From Candidatus Omnitrophota bacterium (GTDB lineage: Bacteria; Omnitrophota; Gorgyraeia; JAHJTE01): a DNA stretch of 64,000 nt. Within the stretch, counting starts at the first letter, position 1, and each line of letters opens with the position of its first letter. Shown here piece after piece: positions 1 to 64,000 of this stretch. The stretch is from assembly GCA_040753675.1 (NCBI GenBank), contig JBFMEB010000003.1:1715-65714 (forward strand), written 5' to 3'. The notes beneath the pieces were generated by a model that worked only from the letters and a program-made list of their open reading frames with translations, did not search any database and had not been told where the DNA came from. Position numbers and translations under genes: made by a program.

Positions 1-385
1 TATTTCCAATTTTCGAAAATAGATTTAGAGCAGAATTGACCAGCGCTAAGTCTTCCTGCAACGCAGCAATATCTTTGCCTTTTGGCTCGCCTTGGTGCTC
101 CACGTGTAAAAGCCCCAGCAAACGCAAGTGCTTTACTGTAGCCTCTGCATCACTTGAGCGCACAATAATTGCTACTTTTTTCATCGGTACAATCATGTTA
201 AATGAGCACATAACTTACGGAGCCATTGTTTTACCTTAGCGACGTAAGTTATAAGTGCGAATTTAACCCAGCACTTATTTTACTAAAAAGCTGGGTAGTA
301 AAAATTAAGATTTTATTCGAAGAAAATTTATTTTATTTCAACTTAAAGCCTGGCAGTAAAATAAGTGCTGGGTAAGTTCAGCCAA

Positions 386-417
386 ACAACTTATGCTGCT
401 ATCGCCTCATAAGTTGT
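386..417 (-). terminator. ATAACTTATG-type palindromic hairpin overlapping the atpD stop codon
   Basis: acaacttatg-12 nt-cataagttgt. The same 10-bp stem sequence family occurs at 209..253 and 8361..8393. Confidence 0.35.
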
Positions 418-1014
418 GGCTTCACTTATTTTTCTCTTGGCAATTTTACTTCTTCCTACGGCGTTAGCCATCTGATCGCCTAAATAAATCTTAATAACGC
501 GAATTGCTTCCTGCGATTGTGGTATTTTCACATTCTCAAAAAGATTTACCCTCTGGGTGGTAATGCGTAATTCATGCCTTAAGACCTCAATCTCTTTTTT
601 AATTATTTCCAGCTCTTGCCGTAAGGAAACTATTGCCCTTAAGTGCTCAATAGCAGCATCAACCCATAATGGATAAATAAATAAGTCATATTCGAGTCTA
701 TCAAAATCTACATTAACAAAAACTTCTAAATCTACGCCTGCGATATTTTTCCGGCTCGTCACTATCTTTTTAGGCTTAAGCCATTGGTTTATGTTTATCC
801 CAGAGTCTGCTTTCAATAACCCTGCCCAACTCTCATAGGAAAGTTTTTTGTCTTGCTCCTCTTTGGTTTTTTGCTCAAGCAAAGCTAACTGATGCAAAAT
901 TTCAATCTGCAATTGTTGCTTCTTAAGCAAAAGAGTTGGCAGGTATCGCAGATACTGGCTTAAACTATCGCGTTGTCTTTTTAGTTCGCCTTTTGTTAAT
1001 TTTATCTTAGCCAT
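391..1014 (-). CDS. atpD: V-type ATP synthase subunit D
   Basis: 207 aa coiled-coil protein directly downstream of the A and B subunits in the operon. The N-terminal pattern [13 protein letters not shown] is typical of V/A-ATPase D subunits. Confidence 0.7.
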
Positions 1015-2311
1015 TTTTAGGTTTTGGCCAATGTTTCTCTATCATTGATTTTTTTATGCCCGTTTCTTCCGGGCTAAAACACTCGCAGAGAATTTCCCAG
1101 CCTAAATCTAACGCCTTTTCGAGCGGAATATTCACTTCTAAAGACATCATTTGTTTCTCGAAAATTCTGCCGTATTTAAGCAGTTTCTTGTCCCAGTTGC
1201 TCATGGCAAATCCCATTGCTTGTTTTTCTACTGTCTCCCTGAAATTAGCAAATAATTGAATCATAGTATCCATAATAGTGCGGTGGTCATCGCGTGTCTT
1301 GCCGTTTACCTGCTGCTTTAGTCGACTCAATGAACCAAACGGTTCAATAACCCTGTCTTTAAGATAAAATTGGCCTTCGGTAATGTAACCAGTATTGTCT
1401 GGCACCGGATGAGTAACATCATCTCCTGGCATAGTAGTAACTGCAAGGATAGTAATTGAACCTGCTCCTTCAAAGTCAACTGCCTTTTCATAACGGCTGG
1501 CTAATTGGCTATACAAATCTCCAGGATAGCCACGGTTTGAAGGCACATGCTCCATAGTAATGGAAATCTCTTTTAAGGCGTCAGAAAAATTGGTCATATC
1601 AGTTAACAAAACCAAAACACGTTTTCCAGCCAAGGCAAACTGTTCAGCCACAGCCAAACTTATGTCCGGAACAAGCATGCACTCTACAACAGGGTCAGAA
1701 GCAGTGTGTATAAAAAATACTGTGCGCGATAATGCGCCTTGCTCCTCTAAGGTATCTCTAAAGAAAAGGTAGTCATCATGCTTTAAGCCCATACCTCCTA
1801 AAATAATCACATCAACTTCTGCCTGTATGGCAATCCTTGCCAATAGTTCATTATACGGCTCGCCAGCAATGGAAAATATGGGCAGCTTCTGAGACACAAC
1901 TAAAGAATTAAAAACATCAATCATCGGAATGCCAGTGCGAATCATTTTGTTTGGTATTATCCTTTTCACCGGATTAACTGGCGGCCCACCAATATCAATA
2001 ATATCTTGAGATAAAGCCGGGCCCTTATCCAAAGGCTCGCCGCTGCCATTAAATATGCGGCCCAATAGGCTATCTCCACTGGCAATATGCATTGGATGGC
2101 CTAAGAAGCGTACCTTATCACCTGTTGAAACGCCTTTGCTCCCGGCAAAAACCTGCAAAGATACTCTTTCACCTTCCAGGCGTATTACCTGGGCAAGAGA
2201 AACGCCACGCCTTGTAGTCACCTGCGCTATCTCAGCATTGCCAACAGCCTCTGCCTCAACTGTAATAACATCACCTGCAATCTCCACTATATTTGTATAA
2301 ATTTTATACAT
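1007..2311 (-). CDS. atpB: V-type ATP synthase subunit B (regulatory)
   Basis: 434 aa with an alpha/beta ATPase fold and no canonical Walker A motif. Adjacent to, and overlapping, the A subunit gene. Confidence 0.85.
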
Positions 2312-4070
2312 CTATAATCTCACTTTCAGATTTAATCTTTTCCTTTTCTGTAGCAATAATTTCTTTTTCAATGGCTTTAAATTCTTCTGATTGCCAGGGG
2401 CTTGAATTCCAACCTCGAAAAAGCTGCCTTAAGCTCTGGAAAAAGTGCAAAGCCTCTTCTTTGCTATCAAGTTTAAATTCTTGCTCTAAAATGTTTTGGT
2501 AGATAAAATTAAATGTATATTTTTGCCTTTCTTCGGATGTCGCCTCATCAACTGGGTCAAATGCATTCTGCTGCAGATAAACAAAATCAAAAAACTCACC
2601 CTTTAAATAATCTATGTAATCCGCTAAAGATGTTCCTTCTTCTCCCACAACCTTCATCATCTGCGCCACGTCAAAACTTTTTCGTAAGATTTCATGGCCT
2701 TTTTTTGCCTGTCTCTCATCTATAAAACTCTTATATTTGCTCCAGCTTATCAGTGGATCAATGGCAGGATAACGCCTTGCATTTGCGCGTTGGTTTGATA
2801 ATCCATGAAATGCGCCAACTACTTTTAAGGTGGCCTGGGTAACTGGCTCATCGAAATTTCCTCCAGCAGGGCTTACTGTCCCACCAATAGTTACAGAGCC
2901 CATTGAGCCGTCGTGTAATTTAACAATGCCGGCCCGTTCATAAAAAGAAGCGATGCGCGACTCTAAATAAGCAGGGAATGCCTCTTCACCGGGTATTTCT
3001 TCTAAACGGCCTGACATCTCGCGCATTGCCTGTGCCCAACGAGAGGTTGAATCTGCAAGAAGCAAAACATTTAATCCCATTTGTCGGTAATATTCGGCAA
3101 TTGTTACAGCAGTATAAACTCCTGATTCTCGTGCTGCTACTGGCATAGAACTGGTATTACACATTATCACTGTACGGTCACTCAAGGGTTTATTTGTGCG
3201 CGGGTCAATCAAATGCGGGAATGTTTTAAGAGTTTCCACTGCCTCACCTGCCCGCTCGCCGCATGCAGCAACGACAACAATGTCTACCTCAGCGTGGCGG
3301 CTGGTTAATTGTTGTAGCACAGTTTTACCAGAGCCAAATGGTCCTGGGATACAAAAGGTTCCACCTAAGGCAACTGGAAACAAGGAATCGATTAATCGCA
3401 TTTTGGTAACTAAAGTGCCCTGGGGTTTTAATTTTTCAGCATACGCAGAAATAGGAACCTTGACTGGCCAAACTTGTCTTAAAAAAACTTCATGAATCTT
3501 TCCCTGTGCATCTTTTAACTTTGCAATCGCTTGTTCTAAATTATATCTTCCTGGATTTGCTATCTGGACAACTTCAAGATTGCCCTTTAAGCTAAAAGGC
3601 GCCATAATAAAGTGCTTAAAAATCTTCTCTGGAACAAAGCCTAATTTTGCTCCGGCAAAAACAAAATCGCCAACTTTAGCAATAGGCGTAAAATCCCACT
3701 CGCTTTGTGAAGGAAGCGCCTGGATATAAACACCCCTTTTTAAAAAGAAACCATGATCTTTAGCCAAATCTGGCAAGGGATTTTGTAAGCCATCAAATAT
3801 CTGGCCTAAAAGACCAGGCCCGAGTTCTACGCAAAGAAGCTCTCCCGTAAACTCCACTTCTTCTCCTACTTGAAGGCCAGAGGTATTTTCAAATACCTGC
3901 ATCTCAGCCTGCCTTGCGCGAATTCGTATAACCTCAGCTTTTAGCTGCTCTTTGCCATGCAAGACAAAAGCAACCTCATTCTGAATTATATTGTCCTCTG
4001 TTTGCGCAGATACCATATTGCCAATAATTTTTGTAATCCGGCCTTCCCTTTTCTCTCTCATATTCATCAA
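2304..4070 (-). CDS. atpA: V-type ATP synthase subunit A (catalytic)
   Basis: 588 aa with Walker A GPFGSGKT and a non-homologous insert region typical of V/A-type A subunits. Confidence 0.9.
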
Positions 4071-58942: not shown

Positions 58943-59317
58943 ATGTGGGATGGGATTAATCGTCGCCGGTTTCCCCGAGCTGATTATCCATGCCTAATTA
59001 AGATTCGAAAGAAGAAAGGCAAAGAAACCCTTGCGGCGAAAACCGAAAATCTTGGTTGCGGCGGCATCTGCGCTATCTTAGAGAAAGACTTAGGGCTGTT
59101 CTCAAGCGTGGATATAGAGCTTGACCTTCAAGACGGGGCAGCGCCAATTAAAGCCGAAGGCACTGTTGTTTGGGTAGTTAGGCGCCATGAGATTAAAAAA
59201 GACAGGGCTGGATATTTTGATACTGGTATAGAGTTCAAAGACTTAGACAGCAAGAATATTGAGAGGATTGAAAAGATAGTTGATAAATGCCTACAGACCG
59301 ATCAGACAAAAGGCTAA
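58943..59317 (+). CDS. PilZ domain protein (putative c-di-GMP receptor)
   Basis: 124 aa with RRRFPR (RxxxR) and NLGCGG (D/NxSxxG-like) motifs spaced as in PilZ. Confidence 0.5.
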   Translation: MWDGINRRRFPRADYPCLIKIRKKKGKETLAAKTENLGCGGICAILEKDLGLFSSVDIELDLQDGAAPIKAEGTVVWVVRRHEIKKDRAGYFDTGIEFKDLDSKNIERIEKIVDKCLQTDQTKG

Positions 59318-60474
59318 TTCTGACCGTCAGCCAGCTGACGAAAGATATAAAATTAATCTTAGAAAATTCACTGCCAGAAGTATGGGTAAGCGGTGAAATT
59401 TCCAATCTAAGCATTCCCGCCTCAGGCCACATCTATTTTACACTTAAAGATGAACTTGCTCAGATTAGGGCTGTGTTTTTTAAAGACCAGAATAGATTAT
59501 TAAAATTTCAACTTAAGGATGGAATGTCAGTTGTCTGTTTAGGCAGGATAGGCGTATATGAAAAAACAGGCAATTATCAGCTTTACCTTAAACTCATTGA
59601 GCCAAAAGGCATAGGTGCATTGAGTCTTGCCTTTGGACAGTTAAAAGAGAAACTTTCCAAAGAAGGTTTGTTTGATGAGGCGCGAAAAAAACCTATCCCT
59701 GCTTTTCCAAAACACCTTGCTTTTATTACTTCCAGAAGCGGTGCAGTAATTTCCGATATGCTAACTATCCTTAAACGCCGCGCCAGCCAGGTGGAAGTTA
59801 GCCTTTTTAGCGTTCAGGTCCAGGGAGAAGTTGCAGCAGAGCAAATTTCGCAAGCTATTAAATTAGCTGATAAATTTTATGAAGAATTCGATTGTTTAGT
59901 GCTTGCCCGGGGCGGAGGAAGTTTAGAAGATTTATGGCCATTTAATGAAGAGAAAGTGGCGCGTTCAGTTTTTAGTTGTCGCATTCCTACGGTTAGCGCG
60001 GTTGGCCATGAAATAGATTGGACCATATGCGATTTTGTTGCTGATATGCGCGCGCCTACACCCTCTGCTGCTATAGAAATGCTTATTCCCTCCAGAGAGG
60101 AATTGCGCAAATCCCTCCTTGATTTAATCAGGCGCTTAGAAAGATATATAGAGGATTTAGTCCCTCAAGCTAAACAGCGGCTGGACGAATTAACGATGGC
60201 ACTGTCGCTCAGCCTAAGACAAATGGTCGAGTTAAGAAATGAGAAAATCGTTGGCATATTAAATAGATTAAAATCTTTAAGCCCTTTGAATATTTTAGCA
60301 CGGGGTTATAGTGTCACCTTTGATAAAAACACAGGAAAAGTGATTAAGAATATTCAGGACATAAATATCGGGAGAGAAACTTTAACGCTTCTGGCAAAAG
60401 GAAGTTTTGAAAGCGCGGTAACTAAAATCCGAGAGAAAGGACTTGATAATGACAACAAAAAAGATCGATTTTGA
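59287..60474 (+). CDS. xseA: exodeoxyribonuclease VII large subunit
   Basis: 395 aa with an N-terminal OB fold and a catalytic central domain. The small subunit gene follows. Confidence 0.85.
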   Translation: MPTDRSDKRLILTVSQLTKDIKLILENSLPEVWVSGEISNLSIPASGHIYFTLKDELAQIRAVFFKDQNRLLKFQLKDGMSVVCLGRIGVYEKTGNYQLYLKLIEPKGIGALSLAFGQLKEKLSKEGLFDEARKKPIPAFPKHLAFITSRSGAVISDMLTILKRRASQVEVSLFSVQVQGEVAAEQISQAIKLADKFYEEFDCLVLARGGGSLEDLWPFNEEKVARSVFSCRIPTVSAVGHEIDWTICDFVADMRAPTPSAAIEMLIPSREELRKSLLDLIRRLERYIEDLVPQAKQRLDELTMALSLSLRQMVELRNEKIVGILNRLKSLSPLNILARGYSVTFDKNTGKVIKNIQDINIGRETLTLLAKGSFESAVTKIREKGLDNDNKKDRF

Positions 60475-60682
60475 AAAGGCACTACACCAACTCCAAACAA
60501 TAGTGGAAGAGTTAGAGACAGGCGAATTGCCCTTGGATGAGGCAATTAAAAAATTTAAAATCGGCTCTGCTTTAGCCAAACAATGTTTAGAGATGTTGGA
60601 CTCGATAAAAGTTAAAGTAGAAGAAGTGGTTGGCGAAGAAAAAGGAAAATTAAAAAGGAAGCCATTTAAGCCCGAAAACTAA
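60443..60682 (+). CDS. xseB: exodeoxyribonuclease VII small subunit
   Basis: 79 aa helical protein with FEKALHQLQTIVEELETGELPLDEAIKKF. Confidence 0.8.
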   Translation: MIMTTKKIDFEKALHQLQTIVEELETGELPLDEAIKKFKIGSALAKQCLEMLDSIKVKVEEVVGEEKGKLKRKPFKPEN

Positions 60683-60683
60683 A

Positions 60684-62549
60684 ATGTTACTCGAAAGTAT
60701 TAATAGCCCCCAGGATCTTAAAAAAATACCTATAGCACAATTGCCGGTTTTAGCAGGCGAAATCCGCGCGCTTATTATTGATATTGTTTCTAAGGCTGGC
60801 GGCCATTTGGCAAGTAGTTTAGGGGTAGTGGAGCTTTCGATTGCTCTTCATTATTGTTTTAATGCGCCAGAAGACATTATTGTCTGGGATGTGGGTCATC
60901 AATGCTATACTCATAAAATCCTGACCGGTAGAAGAAAGGAATTTTCTACTTTGCGCCAGTTTAAAGGTATTAGCGGATTTCCGTTGAGAGAAGAATCGCC
61001 TTATGACATGTTTAGCGTGGGCCATGCCTCAACAGCAATTTCACTTGCCTTGGGATTTGCTGTAGCTCGGGATTTAAAAAAAGAGCAAAAAAAGATTGTG
61101 GCAGTAATCGGAGATGGTTCATTAAGCGGGGGGATGTGTTTTGAGGCCTTAAATAACGTAGGCCATTTAAATACAGATATCCTTATTATTCTTAATACTA
61201 ATGAGATGAGTATCTCTCCAGTGGTAGGGGCATTAAGCAATTATATGAATAAAATAATTTCAGCCCCCATTTACAACCGATATAAAACAGCACTTAAGCA
61301 ATTTATTGCACAACGCGTTCCGCGCATAGGACGCAGATTAGTAAAACTTGCCATACATTTTGAAGAAGTTCTAAAAGGGCTTATTGTCCCGGGTATATTT
61401 TTTGAAGAATTGGGATTTCGTTATTTTGGCCCACTCGACGGGCACAACCTAACTAAGCTAATCGAAACTATTAATAATTTAAAGTCAATCAAGGGGCCGA
61501 GGTTATTGCACATCACTACCAAAAAAGGCAAAGGTTATGCTCCGGCAGAGAAGGAACCTGAGAAATTTCACGGCGTTGCAAAATTTAGCCAAGATGTTTT
61601 AGAACCTCAGGTGCTATCCGATAAAAAAACACCGAGTTTTACCGAAATTTTTAGCAACAAACTGATTGAATTAGGAGAAGAAGATAATTCCATTGTTGCA
61701 ATTACAGCTGCAATGCCAGAAGGCACTGGCTTAGATAAATTTGCTAAAAAATTCCCTGGCAGATTTTTTGATGTTGGCATTGCTGAAGAGCATGCAGTTG
61801 CATTTGCTTGCGGTTTAGCCTCTAATGGCTTAAAACCAGTGGTTGCGATTTATTCGACATTTTTACAGCGCTCTTATGACCAACTAATGATTGATTTGGC
61901 GCTCCAGAATTTTAATGTTGTAATTGCAATTGACCGTGCCGGCATTGTGGGAGCGGATGGGGTTACCCATCAAGGGATTTTTGATATCGCGTTTTTACGC
62001 ACCATACCAAATATGATTATTTTAGCGCCAAAAGATGCTAAAGAATTAGAAGCATGCTTAGAATTTAGCTTTAAGCAAAATTGCCCTGTAGCAATACGCT
62101 ATCCTAAGGCAAATATATTTGAATTTCCAAAGGGATATGAGTCAGATCAGAATGTTTTAAAACCTCAAACACTAAAGTCAGTTAAAGAAATTTCACTTAT
62201 TGCTCTGGGTAGTATGGTTAAAGAAGCTTTTCAGGCATCAGAGGTTTTAGAAAAGCAAGGCATAGAAGTTGGCTTGATAAATGCTCGTTGTGCAAAGCCG
62301 TTAGACGAAGCATTTTATAAGAACATAGGAGCAAAATGTAAATATATATTTGCTATTGAAGAAGGTATTCTCGACGGAGGTTTTGGTAACGCGCTGAGGT
62401 GCCTGATAGATGCTAAAACAATTGTTAAAACATTAGGTCTGCCCACAGAATTTATCCAGCACGGCCAACGCGAATTTCTATTAGATATGTATGGCCTAAG
62501 TCCACAGAAGATTGCCGAAGTTGTGAAAACTACCTTAAGCAAGAAATAA
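60684..62549 (+). CDS. dxs: 1-deoxy-D-xylulose-5-phosphate synthase
   Basis: 621 aa with the TPP-binding GDGSLSGGM motif and transketolase-like domains. Confidence 0.95.
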   Translation: MLLESINSPQDLKKIPIAQLPVLAGEIRALIIDIVSKAGGHLASSLGVVELSIALHYCFNAPEDIIVWDVGHQCYTHKILTGRRKEFSTLRQFKGISGFPLREESPYDMFSVGHASTAISLALGFAVARDLKKEQKKIVAVIGDGSLSGGMCFEALNNVGHLNTDILIILNTNEMSISPVVGALSNYMNKIISAPIYNRYKTALKQFIAQRVPRIGRRLVKLAIHFEEVLKGLIVPGIFFEELGFRYFGPLDGHNLTKLIETINNLKSIKGPRLLHITTKKGKGYAPAEKEPEKFHGVAKFSQDVLEPQVLSDKKTPSFTEIFSNKLIELGEEDNSIVAITAAMPEGTGLDKFAKKFPGRFFDVGIAEEHAVAFACGLASNGLKPVVAIYSTFLQRSYDQLMIDLALQNFNVVIAIDRAGIVGADGVTHQGIFDIAFLRTIPNMIILAPKDAKELEACLEFSFKQNCPVAIRYPKANIFEFPKGYESDQNVLKPQTLKSVKEISLIALGSMVKEAFQASEVLEKQGIEVGLINARCAKPLDEAFYKNIGAKCKYIFAIEEGILDGGFGNALRCLIDAKTIVKTLGLPTEFIQHGQREFLLDMYGLSPQKIAEVVKTTLSKK

Positions 62550-62567
62550 ATACACAGAAATTAAAGG

Positions 62568-62602
62568 CTTGACAAACATTATATATAGGTTATAATCTAT
62601 AT
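62568..62602 (+). promoter_or_regulatory. sigma70-like promoter upstream of the abiEii-like gene
   Basis: TTGACA - 16 nt - TATAAT, followed by alternating TA-rich sequence. Confidence 0.4.
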
Positions 62603-62643
62603 ATATATAGTTTATAGTCTATATAAGAGATGAGAAACCAGCT

Positions 62644-63357
62644 ATGGATATAAAGATTAGAGAAGCACAAGAGCGAGTTTTAAAAGTTTTTTCAAAAGAG
62701 GCTAAGGTCTTTGCACTAGCAGGAGGAACAGCACTCGAGCTATATTATTTACATCACAGGTTCTCTGCAGATTTAGACTTTTTTTCACCAAAATATGATA
62801 CTATTGAGATAAATAAATTGATTAGTGTTTTTAAGAAGCATATAAATAAAAAAATTAAATTGGGGTCAGAGTTTATTGCAAGGGGCAGGGCCAAGGTCAG
62901 GTTTTACACCATACCAATTAAGGGTTCACAGAGGCCTTTAAAGATTGACCTTGTCGAGGACACTGTTATTGAAAGCCCAAAAATTAAAAAAGTTGGCGGA
63001 GTGCGTGTTTATAGCATAGAAGATTTATATTTACATAAGATTAGTGCTATTTCCGGCACAGAGCCGCAAGTGGATGAGATTGGCAGACAGGTTATAGAAG
63101 GCCGTAAGCAGGCTCGTGATGCGTTTGATGTCTATATGCTTTCAAAGAAAATACAACCCTTGCACATATTTTTGAAAAATGTTTCTTCGCGATTTCAAAG
63201 GGGTATGATTCATTGGTATAGGACATTTTCTCGCCAGGAACTAAAATTAGCGCTTTTAGATTTGGATATTTATGAGCCAAAATTTGACTCTAAAGAAATG
63301 ATTGATTATTTGGAAAATGAGATCAAGCAATTCGCAAAAGGGGTTATTGGAGAATGA
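62644..63357 (+). CDS. AbiEii/AbiGii-family nucleotidyltransferase (type IV toxin-like, DUF1814)
   Basis: The GGTALELYY...RFSADLDFF N-terminal motif is diagnostic of AbiEii NTases. Confidence 0.7.
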   Translation: MDIKIREAQERVLKVFSKEAKVFALAGGTALELYYLHHRFSADLDFFSPKYDTIEINKLISVFKKHINKKIKLGSEFIARGRAKVRFYTIPIKGSQRPLKIDLVEDTVIESPKIKKVGGVRVYSIEDLYLHKISAISGTEPQVDEIGRQVIEGRKQARDAFDVYMLSKKIQPLHIFLKNVSSRFQRGMIHWYRTFSRQELKLALLDLDIYEPKFDSKEMIDYLENEIKQFAKGVIGE

Positions 63358-63857
63358 TTCAGAAATACTTTTGGGATTTAAATAAAGAGGCATTAAAGGA
63401 AACAGAAAGGGCTATTAAGGATATTAAACATCCTAAATTTTTGATGCGCATGGTAACATTATTGTCTCGGTGCGATAAACCAAAAGAACTATTTTCCATA
63501 ATTTCTAAGAAAGATTTTATTAAAATTTGGCCAAAGATTAAAACTTATTGGTTAAAGGTTGAGCGGATATCAGATTTCAGAGATTGGTGGGAAACTATAT
63601 ACGAGCAACTTTTAGAGAAATACCAGCATAAATATAAAAATGCTAAAGGGTTAAGCCCTGATTTTTTCCTAAATTTTGGCAAATCAATTAGGCAGGCGAG
63701 AATCAGCAAAGGTTTAAGTCAAAAACAGCTGGCTCTTAGCATAGGTATGAAGCAGCCGGATATTTCTAAGATTGAAGAAGGCAAGAAAAACATTACTTTA
63801 TATACCCTGATGCGCCTTAGTAAAATTCTAGAACTCAAGAGAATAGACATTAGTTAA
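63354..63857 (+). CDS. XRE-family HTH protein (C-terminal HTH) with an unknown N-terminal domain, translationally coupled to the upstream NTase
   Basis: ATGA start/stop overlap with the upstream gene. The C-terminal LSQKQLALSIGMKQPDISKIEEGKKNITLYTLMRLSKIL is an HTH_XRE. Confidence 0.6.
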   Translation: MIQKYFWDLNKEALKETERAIKDIKHPKFLMRMVTLLSRCDKPKELFSIISKKDFIKIWPKIKTYWLKVERISDFRDWWETIYEQLLEKYQHKYKNAKGLSPDFFLNFGKSIRQARISKGLSQKQLALSIGMKQPDISKIEEGKKNITLYTLMRLSKILELKRIDIS

Positions 63858-63881
63858 CAAAAGATTAGCCTTAACAAAAAA

Positions 63882-64000
63882 ATGCCAAAGATTAAAATTG
63901 ATAAAAAGAGATGCAAAGGTTGTGAGTTGTGTATTATATTTTGTCCTTTGGGCCACATTAAGAATTCTAATTCTCTAAATAAATCAGGCCACAGGCCAGC
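63882..64000 (+). CDS. partial CDS, 4Fe-4S ferredoxin-type domain protein (N-terminus only)
   Basis: MPKIKIDKKRCKGCELCIIFCP cluster-binding motif. The CDS runs off the window. Confidence 0.35.
   Translation, partial: MPKIKIDKKRCKGCELCIIFCPLGHIKNSNSLNKSGHRP

Follow-up and report, generated by a model that had tools for sequence, protein, structure and literature searches.

Introduction

Can a nucleotidyltransferase of a known toxin family be served by an antitoxin unlike its usual partner, and if so, which of two overlapping genes plays which part? The question is raised by a gene pair in a 64,000-nucleotide stretch of DNA (the window) from a Candidatus Omnitrophota bacterium (GenBank assembly GCA_040753675.1, contig JBFMEB010000003.1, positions 1,715 to 65,714 of the forward strand). 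Gene 1 (62644-63357, + strand) encodes a putative toxin of 237 amino acids (aa), a nucleotidyltransferase (NTase) of the AbiEii/DUF1814 family. Gene 2 (63354-63857, + strand) encodes a putative antitoxin and autorepressor of 167 aa. We propose that the two genes probably make up a self-contained toxin–antitoxin (TA) operon under its own regulation, in which a toxin of the DUF1814 (AbiEii/MenT) class is paired with a non-canonical antitoxin.

AbiE systems are described by Dy et al. 2014 (PMC3985639) and in a 2026 preprint (10.64898/2026.01.19.700257), according to which their 'type IV' label is under revision to type VII. Three partners of DUF1814 toxins are known, COG5340, COG4861 and MenA1 (PMC11375011, PMC3985639), and the genes for the COG5340 and COG4861 partners lie upstream of the NTase gene (Dy et al., PMC3985639). 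An earlier note on this DNA, made from its letters alone, had described the pair as an AbiEii-like NTase with its sole partner downstream and had suggested an undescribed variant module. Both open reading frames (ORFs) lie where that note had placed them, on the + strand and with an ATGA overlap at 63354-63357, and most of its further claims held up on analysis, as set out below.

Results

Gene 1 carries all motifs of the AbiEii family

Gene 1 matches the AbiEii family PF08843 with 71.4 bits (E=1.4e-19), well above the curated cut-off of 22.5 bits, and is matched by 21 PADLOC AbiEii models; NCBIfam yielded no model for it. It carries the signature GGTAL...RFSADLDFF, from which the earlier note had drawn its family assignment, and a product identical to it is on record from a Candidatus Omnitrophota metagenome-assembled genome (MAG). 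Four motifs have been defined for AbiEii: motifs I and II, the pol-beta core, read hG[G/S]...R...DhD, motif III is a Lys among hydrophobic residues with a downstream Arg, and motif IV is +DxxD (PMC3985639). Dy et al. 2014 (PMC3985639) showed that AbiEii loses its toxicity and no longer binds GTP when these motifs are mutated. In gene 1 they correspond to A26-G27-G28 (motif I), R39 and D43-L44-D45 (motif II), K132 plus R154 (motif III) and R158-D159-A-F-D162 (motif IV, R158-D159-x-x-D162). All are invariant in 25 homologues, so that the catalytic acidic residues on which the earlier note had made its proposal depend are kept throughout.

A serine, S41, stands two residues ahead of the first catalytic Asp (R-F-S-A-D-L-D). 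It is invariant in 25/25 homologues and also kept in distant toxin-first relatives. Phosphoacceptors occupy the same position in other members of the family, namely T39 of MenT1 and S78 of MenT3 (PMC11375011) and T65 of Streptococcus agalactiae AbiEii (10.64898/2026.01.19.700257).

When a profile of the 25 homologues was searched against PDB sequences, the sole solved family reached was Helicobacter pylori JHP933 (4o8s/4ok0, E=2e-6), in an alignment that covers motifs I-IV. JHP933, a plasticity-zone protein, is thus the closest solved structure to gene 1 by sequence; the MenT toxins were not reached in this search. Neither gene product matched NTP_transf_2 or HEPN in the Pfam and NCBIfam scans. 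All sequence criteria place gene 1 in the AbiEii/DUF1814 family, as an intact NTase.

Gene 2 joins an uncharacterised helical domain to an XRE helix-turn-helix

The match of gene 2 to known families is limited to aa 112-161, which fit the helix-turn-helix (HTH) family HTH_3 (E=3e-12). The C-terminal domain (aa 108-162; 63675-63839, + strand) is accordingly of the XRE/Cro-C1 type and is putatively operator-binding. Its nearest solved relatives are restriction-modification controller proteins and HipB, and weak, sub-threshold NCBIfam matches fall on the HTH regions of HipB, HigA and MqsA-type antitoxin models.

The N-terminal domain (N-domain; aa 1-100; 63354-63653, + strand) would be the toxin-neutralising part. 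Structure prediction gives an all-alpha domain of about 100-105 aa with five helices. The architecture read by the earlier note, an N-domain of no known family followed by a C-terminal XRE HTH, thus stands, with the length of the N-domain corrected from about 110 aa. Conservation within the protein is highest in residues 1-100, which contain the motifs KYFWDLN..AL, HPKF, LLSRCDKP.ELFS, F...WP.IR.YW and SDFRDWWETIYEQL. For aa 1-105, nothing credible was found in Pfam or NCBIfam at E<=1, the sole Pfam match being DASH_Ask1 below its cut-off. PADLOC returned nothing credible for the N-domain either, PHROGs matched the HTH region only, and no convincing fold match was found among the solved structures in the PDB. 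The Pfam families of AbiEi, the usual partner of AbiEii, gave no match in either gene product at E<=1.

When 1.84 billion proteins were searched with a profile restricted to the N-domain, only 87 cluster representatives were retrieved at E<=0.001. In 18/20 representatives that were scanned, the N-domain is followed by HTH_3; the other two (P0263 and P0293) are without any Pfam match. Length and architecture are uniform among 437 homologues of gene 2. From these comparisons, we conclude that the N-domain is an uncharacterised domain that deserves a family definition of its own.

The pair and its junction are conserved in many loci

We examined the neighbourhoods of homologues (loci numbered L001 onwards) from both sides of the pair. 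The gene-2-anchored sample came from an N-domain search of GTDB contigs, one genome per species, and comprised 78 assessable loci. The gene-1-anchored sample came from metagenome contigs of the JGI, with intact N-terminal motifs required; here, the best 80 of 177 matches were taken, of which 78 were assessable. A gene 1 homologue lies immediately 5' of gene 2 on the same strand in 68/78 gene-2-anchored loci. Conversely, gene 2 follows immediately 3' in 78/78 gene-1-anchored loci drawn from those best 80 of 177, where it is complete in 69 and cut by the contig end in the rest. Even two distant relatives of gene 2 (profile E=4e-7 and 2e-4) lie behind AbiEii genes with a 4-nt overlap. Synteny between gene 2 homologues and AbiEii NTases is thus essentially universal and extends to relatives at E~1e-4 to 1e-7, as would be the case for a module of the kind suggested in the earlier note.

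The junction itself is equally constant, with an identical 4-nt stop/start overlap in 104/115 distinct pairs. Across these 115 distinct pairs, the identities of gene 1 and gene 2 to the copies in the window correlate (Pearson r=0.80). That more than 100 independent loci share this pair and this junction is far beyond chance. Each protein has relatives in several hundred 90%-identity clusters, with lengths of 236-238 aa for gene 1 and 167-169 aa for gene 2. Relatives of both are found at 55-75% identity, and the mean column identities of the two protein alignments are 73% and 56%.

The hosts are uncultivated and belong mainly to the Omnitrophota, and also to Nitrospirota/Thermodesulfovibrionales, Elusimicrobiota, WOR-1, Ratteibacteria and Firestonebacteria; a few are binned as Deltaproteobacteria or Firmicutes. 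Genomic contexts vary, one locus lying among glycosyltransferase and methyltransferase genes. No relative of the N-domain was found on the viral contigs of IMG/VR or, by tblastn, on the plasmids of PLSDB.

A consensus promoter is overlaid by two palindromes

Directly upstream of gene 1 lies a sigma-70-type promoter (62569-62596, + strand) with a -35 box TTGACA (62569-62574), a 16-nt spacer and a -10 box TATAAT (62591-62596). It matches the consensus at 12/12 positions, which agrees with the strong promoter behind dxs that the earlier note had pointed out. The spacer between dxs and gene 1 also carries a 22-bp unit that is repeated in tandem, and each unit holds one 16-bp palindrome. Putative operator 1 (ATAG-GTTATAAT-CTAT, 62585-62600) contains the -10 hexamer, and putative operator 2 (ATAG-TTTATAGT-CTAT, 62607-62622) lies just 3' of it. 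Their spacing of 22 bp corresponds to two helical turns.

The same arrangement of promoter and double palindrome is present in L001, L003 and L006, and its elements are widespread. TTGACA occurs in 95/119 distinct upstream regions of homologous loci. An exact ATAG-N8-CTAT is found once or more in 92/119; elsewhere in these loci, the motif has a background frequency of 0.003 per 120 nt. Exactly two copies are found in 71/119 upstream regions, always spaced by 22-23 bp. Where both motifs are present, the first palindrome usually starts 16-17 nt past the start of TTGACA.

Palindrome and HTH appear to vary together. In a clade from Elusimicrobiota (L075, L082, L083 and L084; similar in L079), ATGTG-N6-8-CACAT occurs twice within 120 nt upstream of the NTase gene in place of the ATAG palindrome. 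In the same clade, the recognition region of the HTH reads M[S/T]QADISR..RG-xNIKL, as opposed to MKQPDIS..EGKKNITL. In loci with a palindrome of the ATATA type, residue D136 of gene 2 is replaced by H or N. Such co-variation, seen in few independent clades, is what would be expected if dimers of gene 2 bind both palindromes and repress the promoter.

Gene 1 is lost while gene 2 is kept

An intact gene 1 is missing from 10/78 gene-2-anchored loci. Six of these retain only fragments, with internal deletions in L015 and L065 and truncations in L016, L044, L066 and L068. In the other four (L024, L055, L081 and L087), gene 1 was not found at all. Several of the loci with a gene 1 deletion keep the promoter, the operators and gene 2. 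In L024, L044, L055 and L066, the operator palindromes still lie 5' of gene 2, with a gene 1 remnant between. Loss in the other direction was not observed: gene 1 without gene 2 occurs in 0/78 loci, compared with 10/78 for gene 2 without an intact gene 1 (Fisher p=0.0014). The first gene is lost and the second kept, as expected for a toxin and its antidote and opposite to what reversed roles predict.

As a separate observation, L024, L044, L055 and L066 may be regarded as natural 'toxin-less' derivatives, and the deletions and truncations are independent across the decayed loci.

Surroundings of the pair

On the 5' side, the pair is preceded by a PilZ-like ORF, xseA, xseB and dxs (60684-62549). 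The spacer between dxs and gene 1 measures 94 bp and is free of ORFs, carrying only the promoter and the operators. There is therefore no AbiEi-type gene before gene 1. Together with the lack of an AbiEi Pfam match in gene 2, this upholds the observation of the earlier note that the sole partner is the downstream one. An Rfam scan of 62300-64000 gave zero matches at E<=1, and thus no sign of an RNA antitoxin or a riboswitch. The genes xseA-xseB-dxs (59287-62549) are packed tightly, with short overlaps or 1-nt gaps, and their order is kept in the related locus L003. The small PilZ-like ORF (58943-59317) overlaps the start of xseA, and a PilZ domain is recorded for its counterpart in L003.

On the 3' side, a 4Fe-4S ferredoxin-type ORF starts at 63884, 27 nt past gene 2. 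It probably encodes the delta subunit of pyruvate:ferredoxin oxidoreductase (POR). L003 has identical flanks, with dxs on one side and a POR operon on the other. Before this ORF only a weak promoter-like match was seen, and no terminator-like site was seen behind gene 2 in 63858-64000. Read-through from the strong promoter of the pair into the POR operon is possible.

Elsewhere the surroundings differ. In L001, part of a 1.26-Mb Omnitrophota contig, the module is directly preceded on its 5' side (1-3637) by a Y1 transposase, by Imm-NTF2-2 immunity genes and by genes for RHS-repeat toxins that carry DUF4329 tips. In L001 (5504-6406) and L002 (1895-2797), a 300-aa ORF that matches no Pfam family shares 4 nt with the gene 2 homologue at the stop codon of the latter. 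This ORF could be a third gene of the cassette in the lineage of L001 and L002 only. As a conserved third gene of the cassette in general it was rejected, as the other inspected loci have different downstream genes.

A possible sister family in Proteobacteria

The closest AbiEii on any PLSDB plasmid, at 30% identity, is encoded on plasmid 3 of Variovorax sp. WDL1. Its module (L174 1881-3181; NZ_LR594691.1 443335-444635; WP_068685058/WP_146039601) lies beside an integrase gene. Look-alikes of our pair in Variovorax and in MAGs of Pseudomonadota (L176-L179, 2210-3534) consist of an AbiEii of 261-264 aa, a 4-nt overlap and a partner of 172-177 aa, with 172 aa for the partner on the Variovorax plasmid. 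In MAG contigs, such relatives lie in a TA island beside PIN and MazEF genes. The N-terminal region of the Variovorax-type partner resembles gene 2 in its FW... and F..xWPxhR motifs, while its C-terminal domain is a winged HTH (weak TrmB/HVO_A0114 matches) in contrast to the XRE domain of gene 2. Aligned by hhalign with the N-domain of the window, it reached a probability of 20-22% (P about 0.001), either as a single sequence or as a 26-sequence profile. Homology of the Variovorax-type partner to the gene 2 N-domain, which would make it a sister family, is therefore suggestive only.

Two further observations concern AbiEii genes in individual loci. The AbiEii homologue at L176 2210-3004 has Asn for the first catalytic Asp (HRLSYNLDFF) and may be an inactive or altered toxin. 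In L168 (3804-5442) and L169 (3096-4734), a second AbiEii of 268 aa lies about 1 kb 3' of the toxin-first pair and is preceded by a 275-aa protein of unknown family, in the canonical partner-first order. Here, two DUF1814 modules of opposite layout thus stand side by side.

Discussion

Relation to known systems

The similarity of the pair to AbiE of Lactococcus lactis and S. agalactiae is considerable. The putative toxin belongs to the same family, PF08843, and agrees with AbiEii in all four motifs and in the position of the phosphoacceptor. In both cases, overlapping genes form a bicistronic operon with two inverted-repeat operators over the promoter. For AbiE, binding of these operators by the DNA-binding domain of the antitoxin is established, whereas the palindromes described here are sequence features. 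The differences are nonetheless substantial. Gene order is reversed, the partner being downstream in all loci with the pair, and gene 2 is without the COG5340/AbiEi domain. Where AbiEi has an N-terminal winged HTH for DNA binding, gene 2 has an XRE HTH at its C-terminus, and the remaining, all-alpha domain of gene 2 shows no detectable relationship to the C-terminal domain of AbiEi. The operators differ as well, with 16-bp palindromes 22 bp apart here and 23-bp inverted repeats at a 3-bp spacing in AbiE. Going by domain content and layout, the pair is not a canonical AbiE system, as both antitoxin type and gene order differ.

A gene order and a C-terminal XRE HTH like those of our pair are known from the reverse-order type II systems MqsRA, HigBA and HicAB, in which the toxin gene comes first and the antitoxin binds the toxin with its N-terminal part and autoregulates via promoter palindromes. 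The likeness ends there. The toxins of these systems are RNases or kinases (RelE/MqsR/HicA RNase folds), whereas gene 1 is a DUF1814 NTase, and no match relates the N-domain of gene 2 to the zinc domain of MqsA or the fold of HicB.

Within the DUF1814 class, MenAT1 and MenAT3 of Mycobacterium tuberculosis share with gene 1 a Ser/Thr two residues before the catalytic Asp, at the position of S41. Their unrelated antitoxins MenA1 and MenA3 each induce auto-phosphorylation of the toxin at this residue (PMC7450476, PMC10435456, PMC11375011). In contrast, the antitoxin fold and the gene order of our pair differ from theirs, and phosphorylation is here a prediction.

To what extent is the module new? 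In a survey of Pseudomonas aeruginosa, 'abiEii–HTH_XRE' and 'abiEii–higA' modules were counted in silico from TADB predictions and flagged as unclassifiable (PMC9424990). Like our pair, they combine an AbiEii gene with a gene for an XRE-type HTH protein instead of AbiEi. They are computational counts, and neither gene order nor an extra antitoxin domain is described there (PMC9424990). An unconfirmed remark in the preprint, that RlegA lies 'downstream' of its DUF1814 toxin, may provide a toxin-first precedent with a COG5340 antitoxin. Searches of the literature for AbiEii together with NetFlax and for COG2253 together with Xre returned no papers. In the literature that our searches found, there is no description of the N-domain family, of the operator or of a fixed coupling with the toxin gene in first place. 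The suggestion in the earlier note of an undescribed variant therefore holds for the N-domain family and the layout and not for the pairing as such; since AbiEii–XRE pairs had already been noted in silico, the novelty is moderate.

Alternative explanations

Is gene 1 a toxin at all? Gene 2 might instead be an XRE transcription factor with a signal-sensing N-domain that controls a non-toxic NTase, and gene 1 would then modify, for example, RNA, a small molecule or a protein under stress. This would account for the high conservation of both proteins, for the dxs–POR position that is kept in a related genome, for the absence of the pair from the phage and plasmid collections (IMG/VR, PLSDB) and for an N-domain that, in fold and profile comparisons, is dissimilar to every known antitoxin. 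However, the pair occurs sporadically, in unrelated contexts and in several phyla. Genes that are strictly coupled by a 4-nt overlap, the enzyme gene leading, typically encode stoichiometric partners and not a regulator and its target. The repeated deletion of gene 1 beside a retained promoter and gene 2, with no case of the reverse among the 78 gene-1-anchored loci, also speaks against it, and all experimentally studied DUF1814 enzymes with these motifs are toxic. We consider a regulator with a harmless enzyme improbable. If gene 1 and gene 2 are toxin and antitoxin, might the roles be the other way round? In HepT/MntA (HEPN–MNT) systems the NTase is the antitoxin, and the first gene of an operon is often the antitoxin gene; gene 1 would then modify and thereby inactivate a harmful gene 2 product. 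Our pair resembles these systems neither in its NTase, which belongs to PF08843 and not to the minimal NTase family, nor in its partner, since gene 2 has an HTH only and no HEPN RNase or other effector domain. Its decay runs in the opposite direction too, gene 1 being lost and gene 2 kept. We have rejected reversed roles on domain content and decay pattern and regard them as very improbable.

A TA operon with gene 1 as the toxin thus remains the preferred explanation, and a dedicated abortive-infection system would be a functional refinement of it that does not exclude it. Here, phage infection would be sensed, for example through loss of a labile gene 2 product, and translation would be shut down. 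Effects on phage are known for L. lactis AbiE and for SanaTA and RlegTA, both of which contain DUF1814, JGI labels homologues of gene 1 as 'nucleotidyltransferase component of viral defense system', and one module, that of L001, adjoins RHS toxin and immunity genes and a transposase. On the other hand, the inspected loci are not enriched beside recognised defence genes, their neighbours being mostly housekeeping genes, and S. agalactiae AbiE gave E. coli no protection against 32 phages. We therefore hold this specialised role to be rather unlikely, although less so than the regulator with a harmless enzyme. Several points weigh against the TA reading itself. Because S. agalactiae AbiE failed in E. 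coli, a defence role may not be assumed for the family. The genome with L003, at about 70% protein identity, has the module at the same dxs–POR site as the window, and this shared site, together with the absence from phage contigs and plasmids, looks in part like a stably inherited chromosomal pair. Both proteins are unusually well conserved, at about 60-75% identity across phyla, which is equally compatible with a function in housekeeping or regulation. The test of asymmetric loss contrasts two samples from different collections with different seed patterns. Finally, for this subfamily, toxicity and its neutralisation are steps that we infer.

A model for toxin control

How could the module work? 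Going by analogy with MenT1/3/4 and S. agalactiae AbiEii, the product of gene 1 would add nucleotides to the 3' ends of tRNAs, block their aminoacylation and thereby arrest translation and growth. Gene 2 would supply the antitoxin, produced right after the toxin through translational coupling at the ATGA overlap. Its helical N-domain might bind the toxin, which is a pure supposition on our part, and neutralise it in one or both of two ways, by blocking the active site and by inducing auto-phosphorylation at S41. As the serine is conserved, induced auto-phosphorylation (type VII-like) stays an option beside sequestration (type II-like). The XRE HTH would bind both 16-bp palindromes as dimers, covering the -10 box and the adjacent 3' DNA, and would thus repress a promoter of consensus strength. 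Toxicity, the tRNA target, the physical interaction, phosphorylation, repression and a role in phage defence are all elements that we infer.

A more specific idea, which we put forward tentatively and would not yet call probable, is that the N-domain represents a new and structurally unrelated class of DUF1814 antitoxin, one that forces auto-phosphorylation at S41 as MenA1 and AbiEi/MenA3 do. If this were true, it would be a further independent evolutionary solution in which unrelated antitoxin folds induce auto-phosphorylation of DUF1814 toxins. It would also mean that the inducible 'self-off switch' resides in the toxin and not in a particular antitoxin fold. Beyond that, the N-domain may span a wider superfamily with interchangeable DNA-binding domains, XRE here and winged HTH in Proteobacteria. 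If the relationship to the Variovorax-type partner is true, the N-domain would be the toxin-specific module, to which different DNA-binding domains can be attached.

Taken together, we propose that the pair represents a further subfamily of the DUF1814 (AbiEii/MenT) toxins, which are under active study. This subfamily is well populated and comprises hundreds of 90%-identity clusters in at least five phyla of uncultivated bacteria. Annotation tools that demand AbiEi for an AbiE call likely miss such modules or label their toxins as orphans. For the toxin family as a whole, the cassette is a natural test of whether inducible auto-phosphorylation is general.

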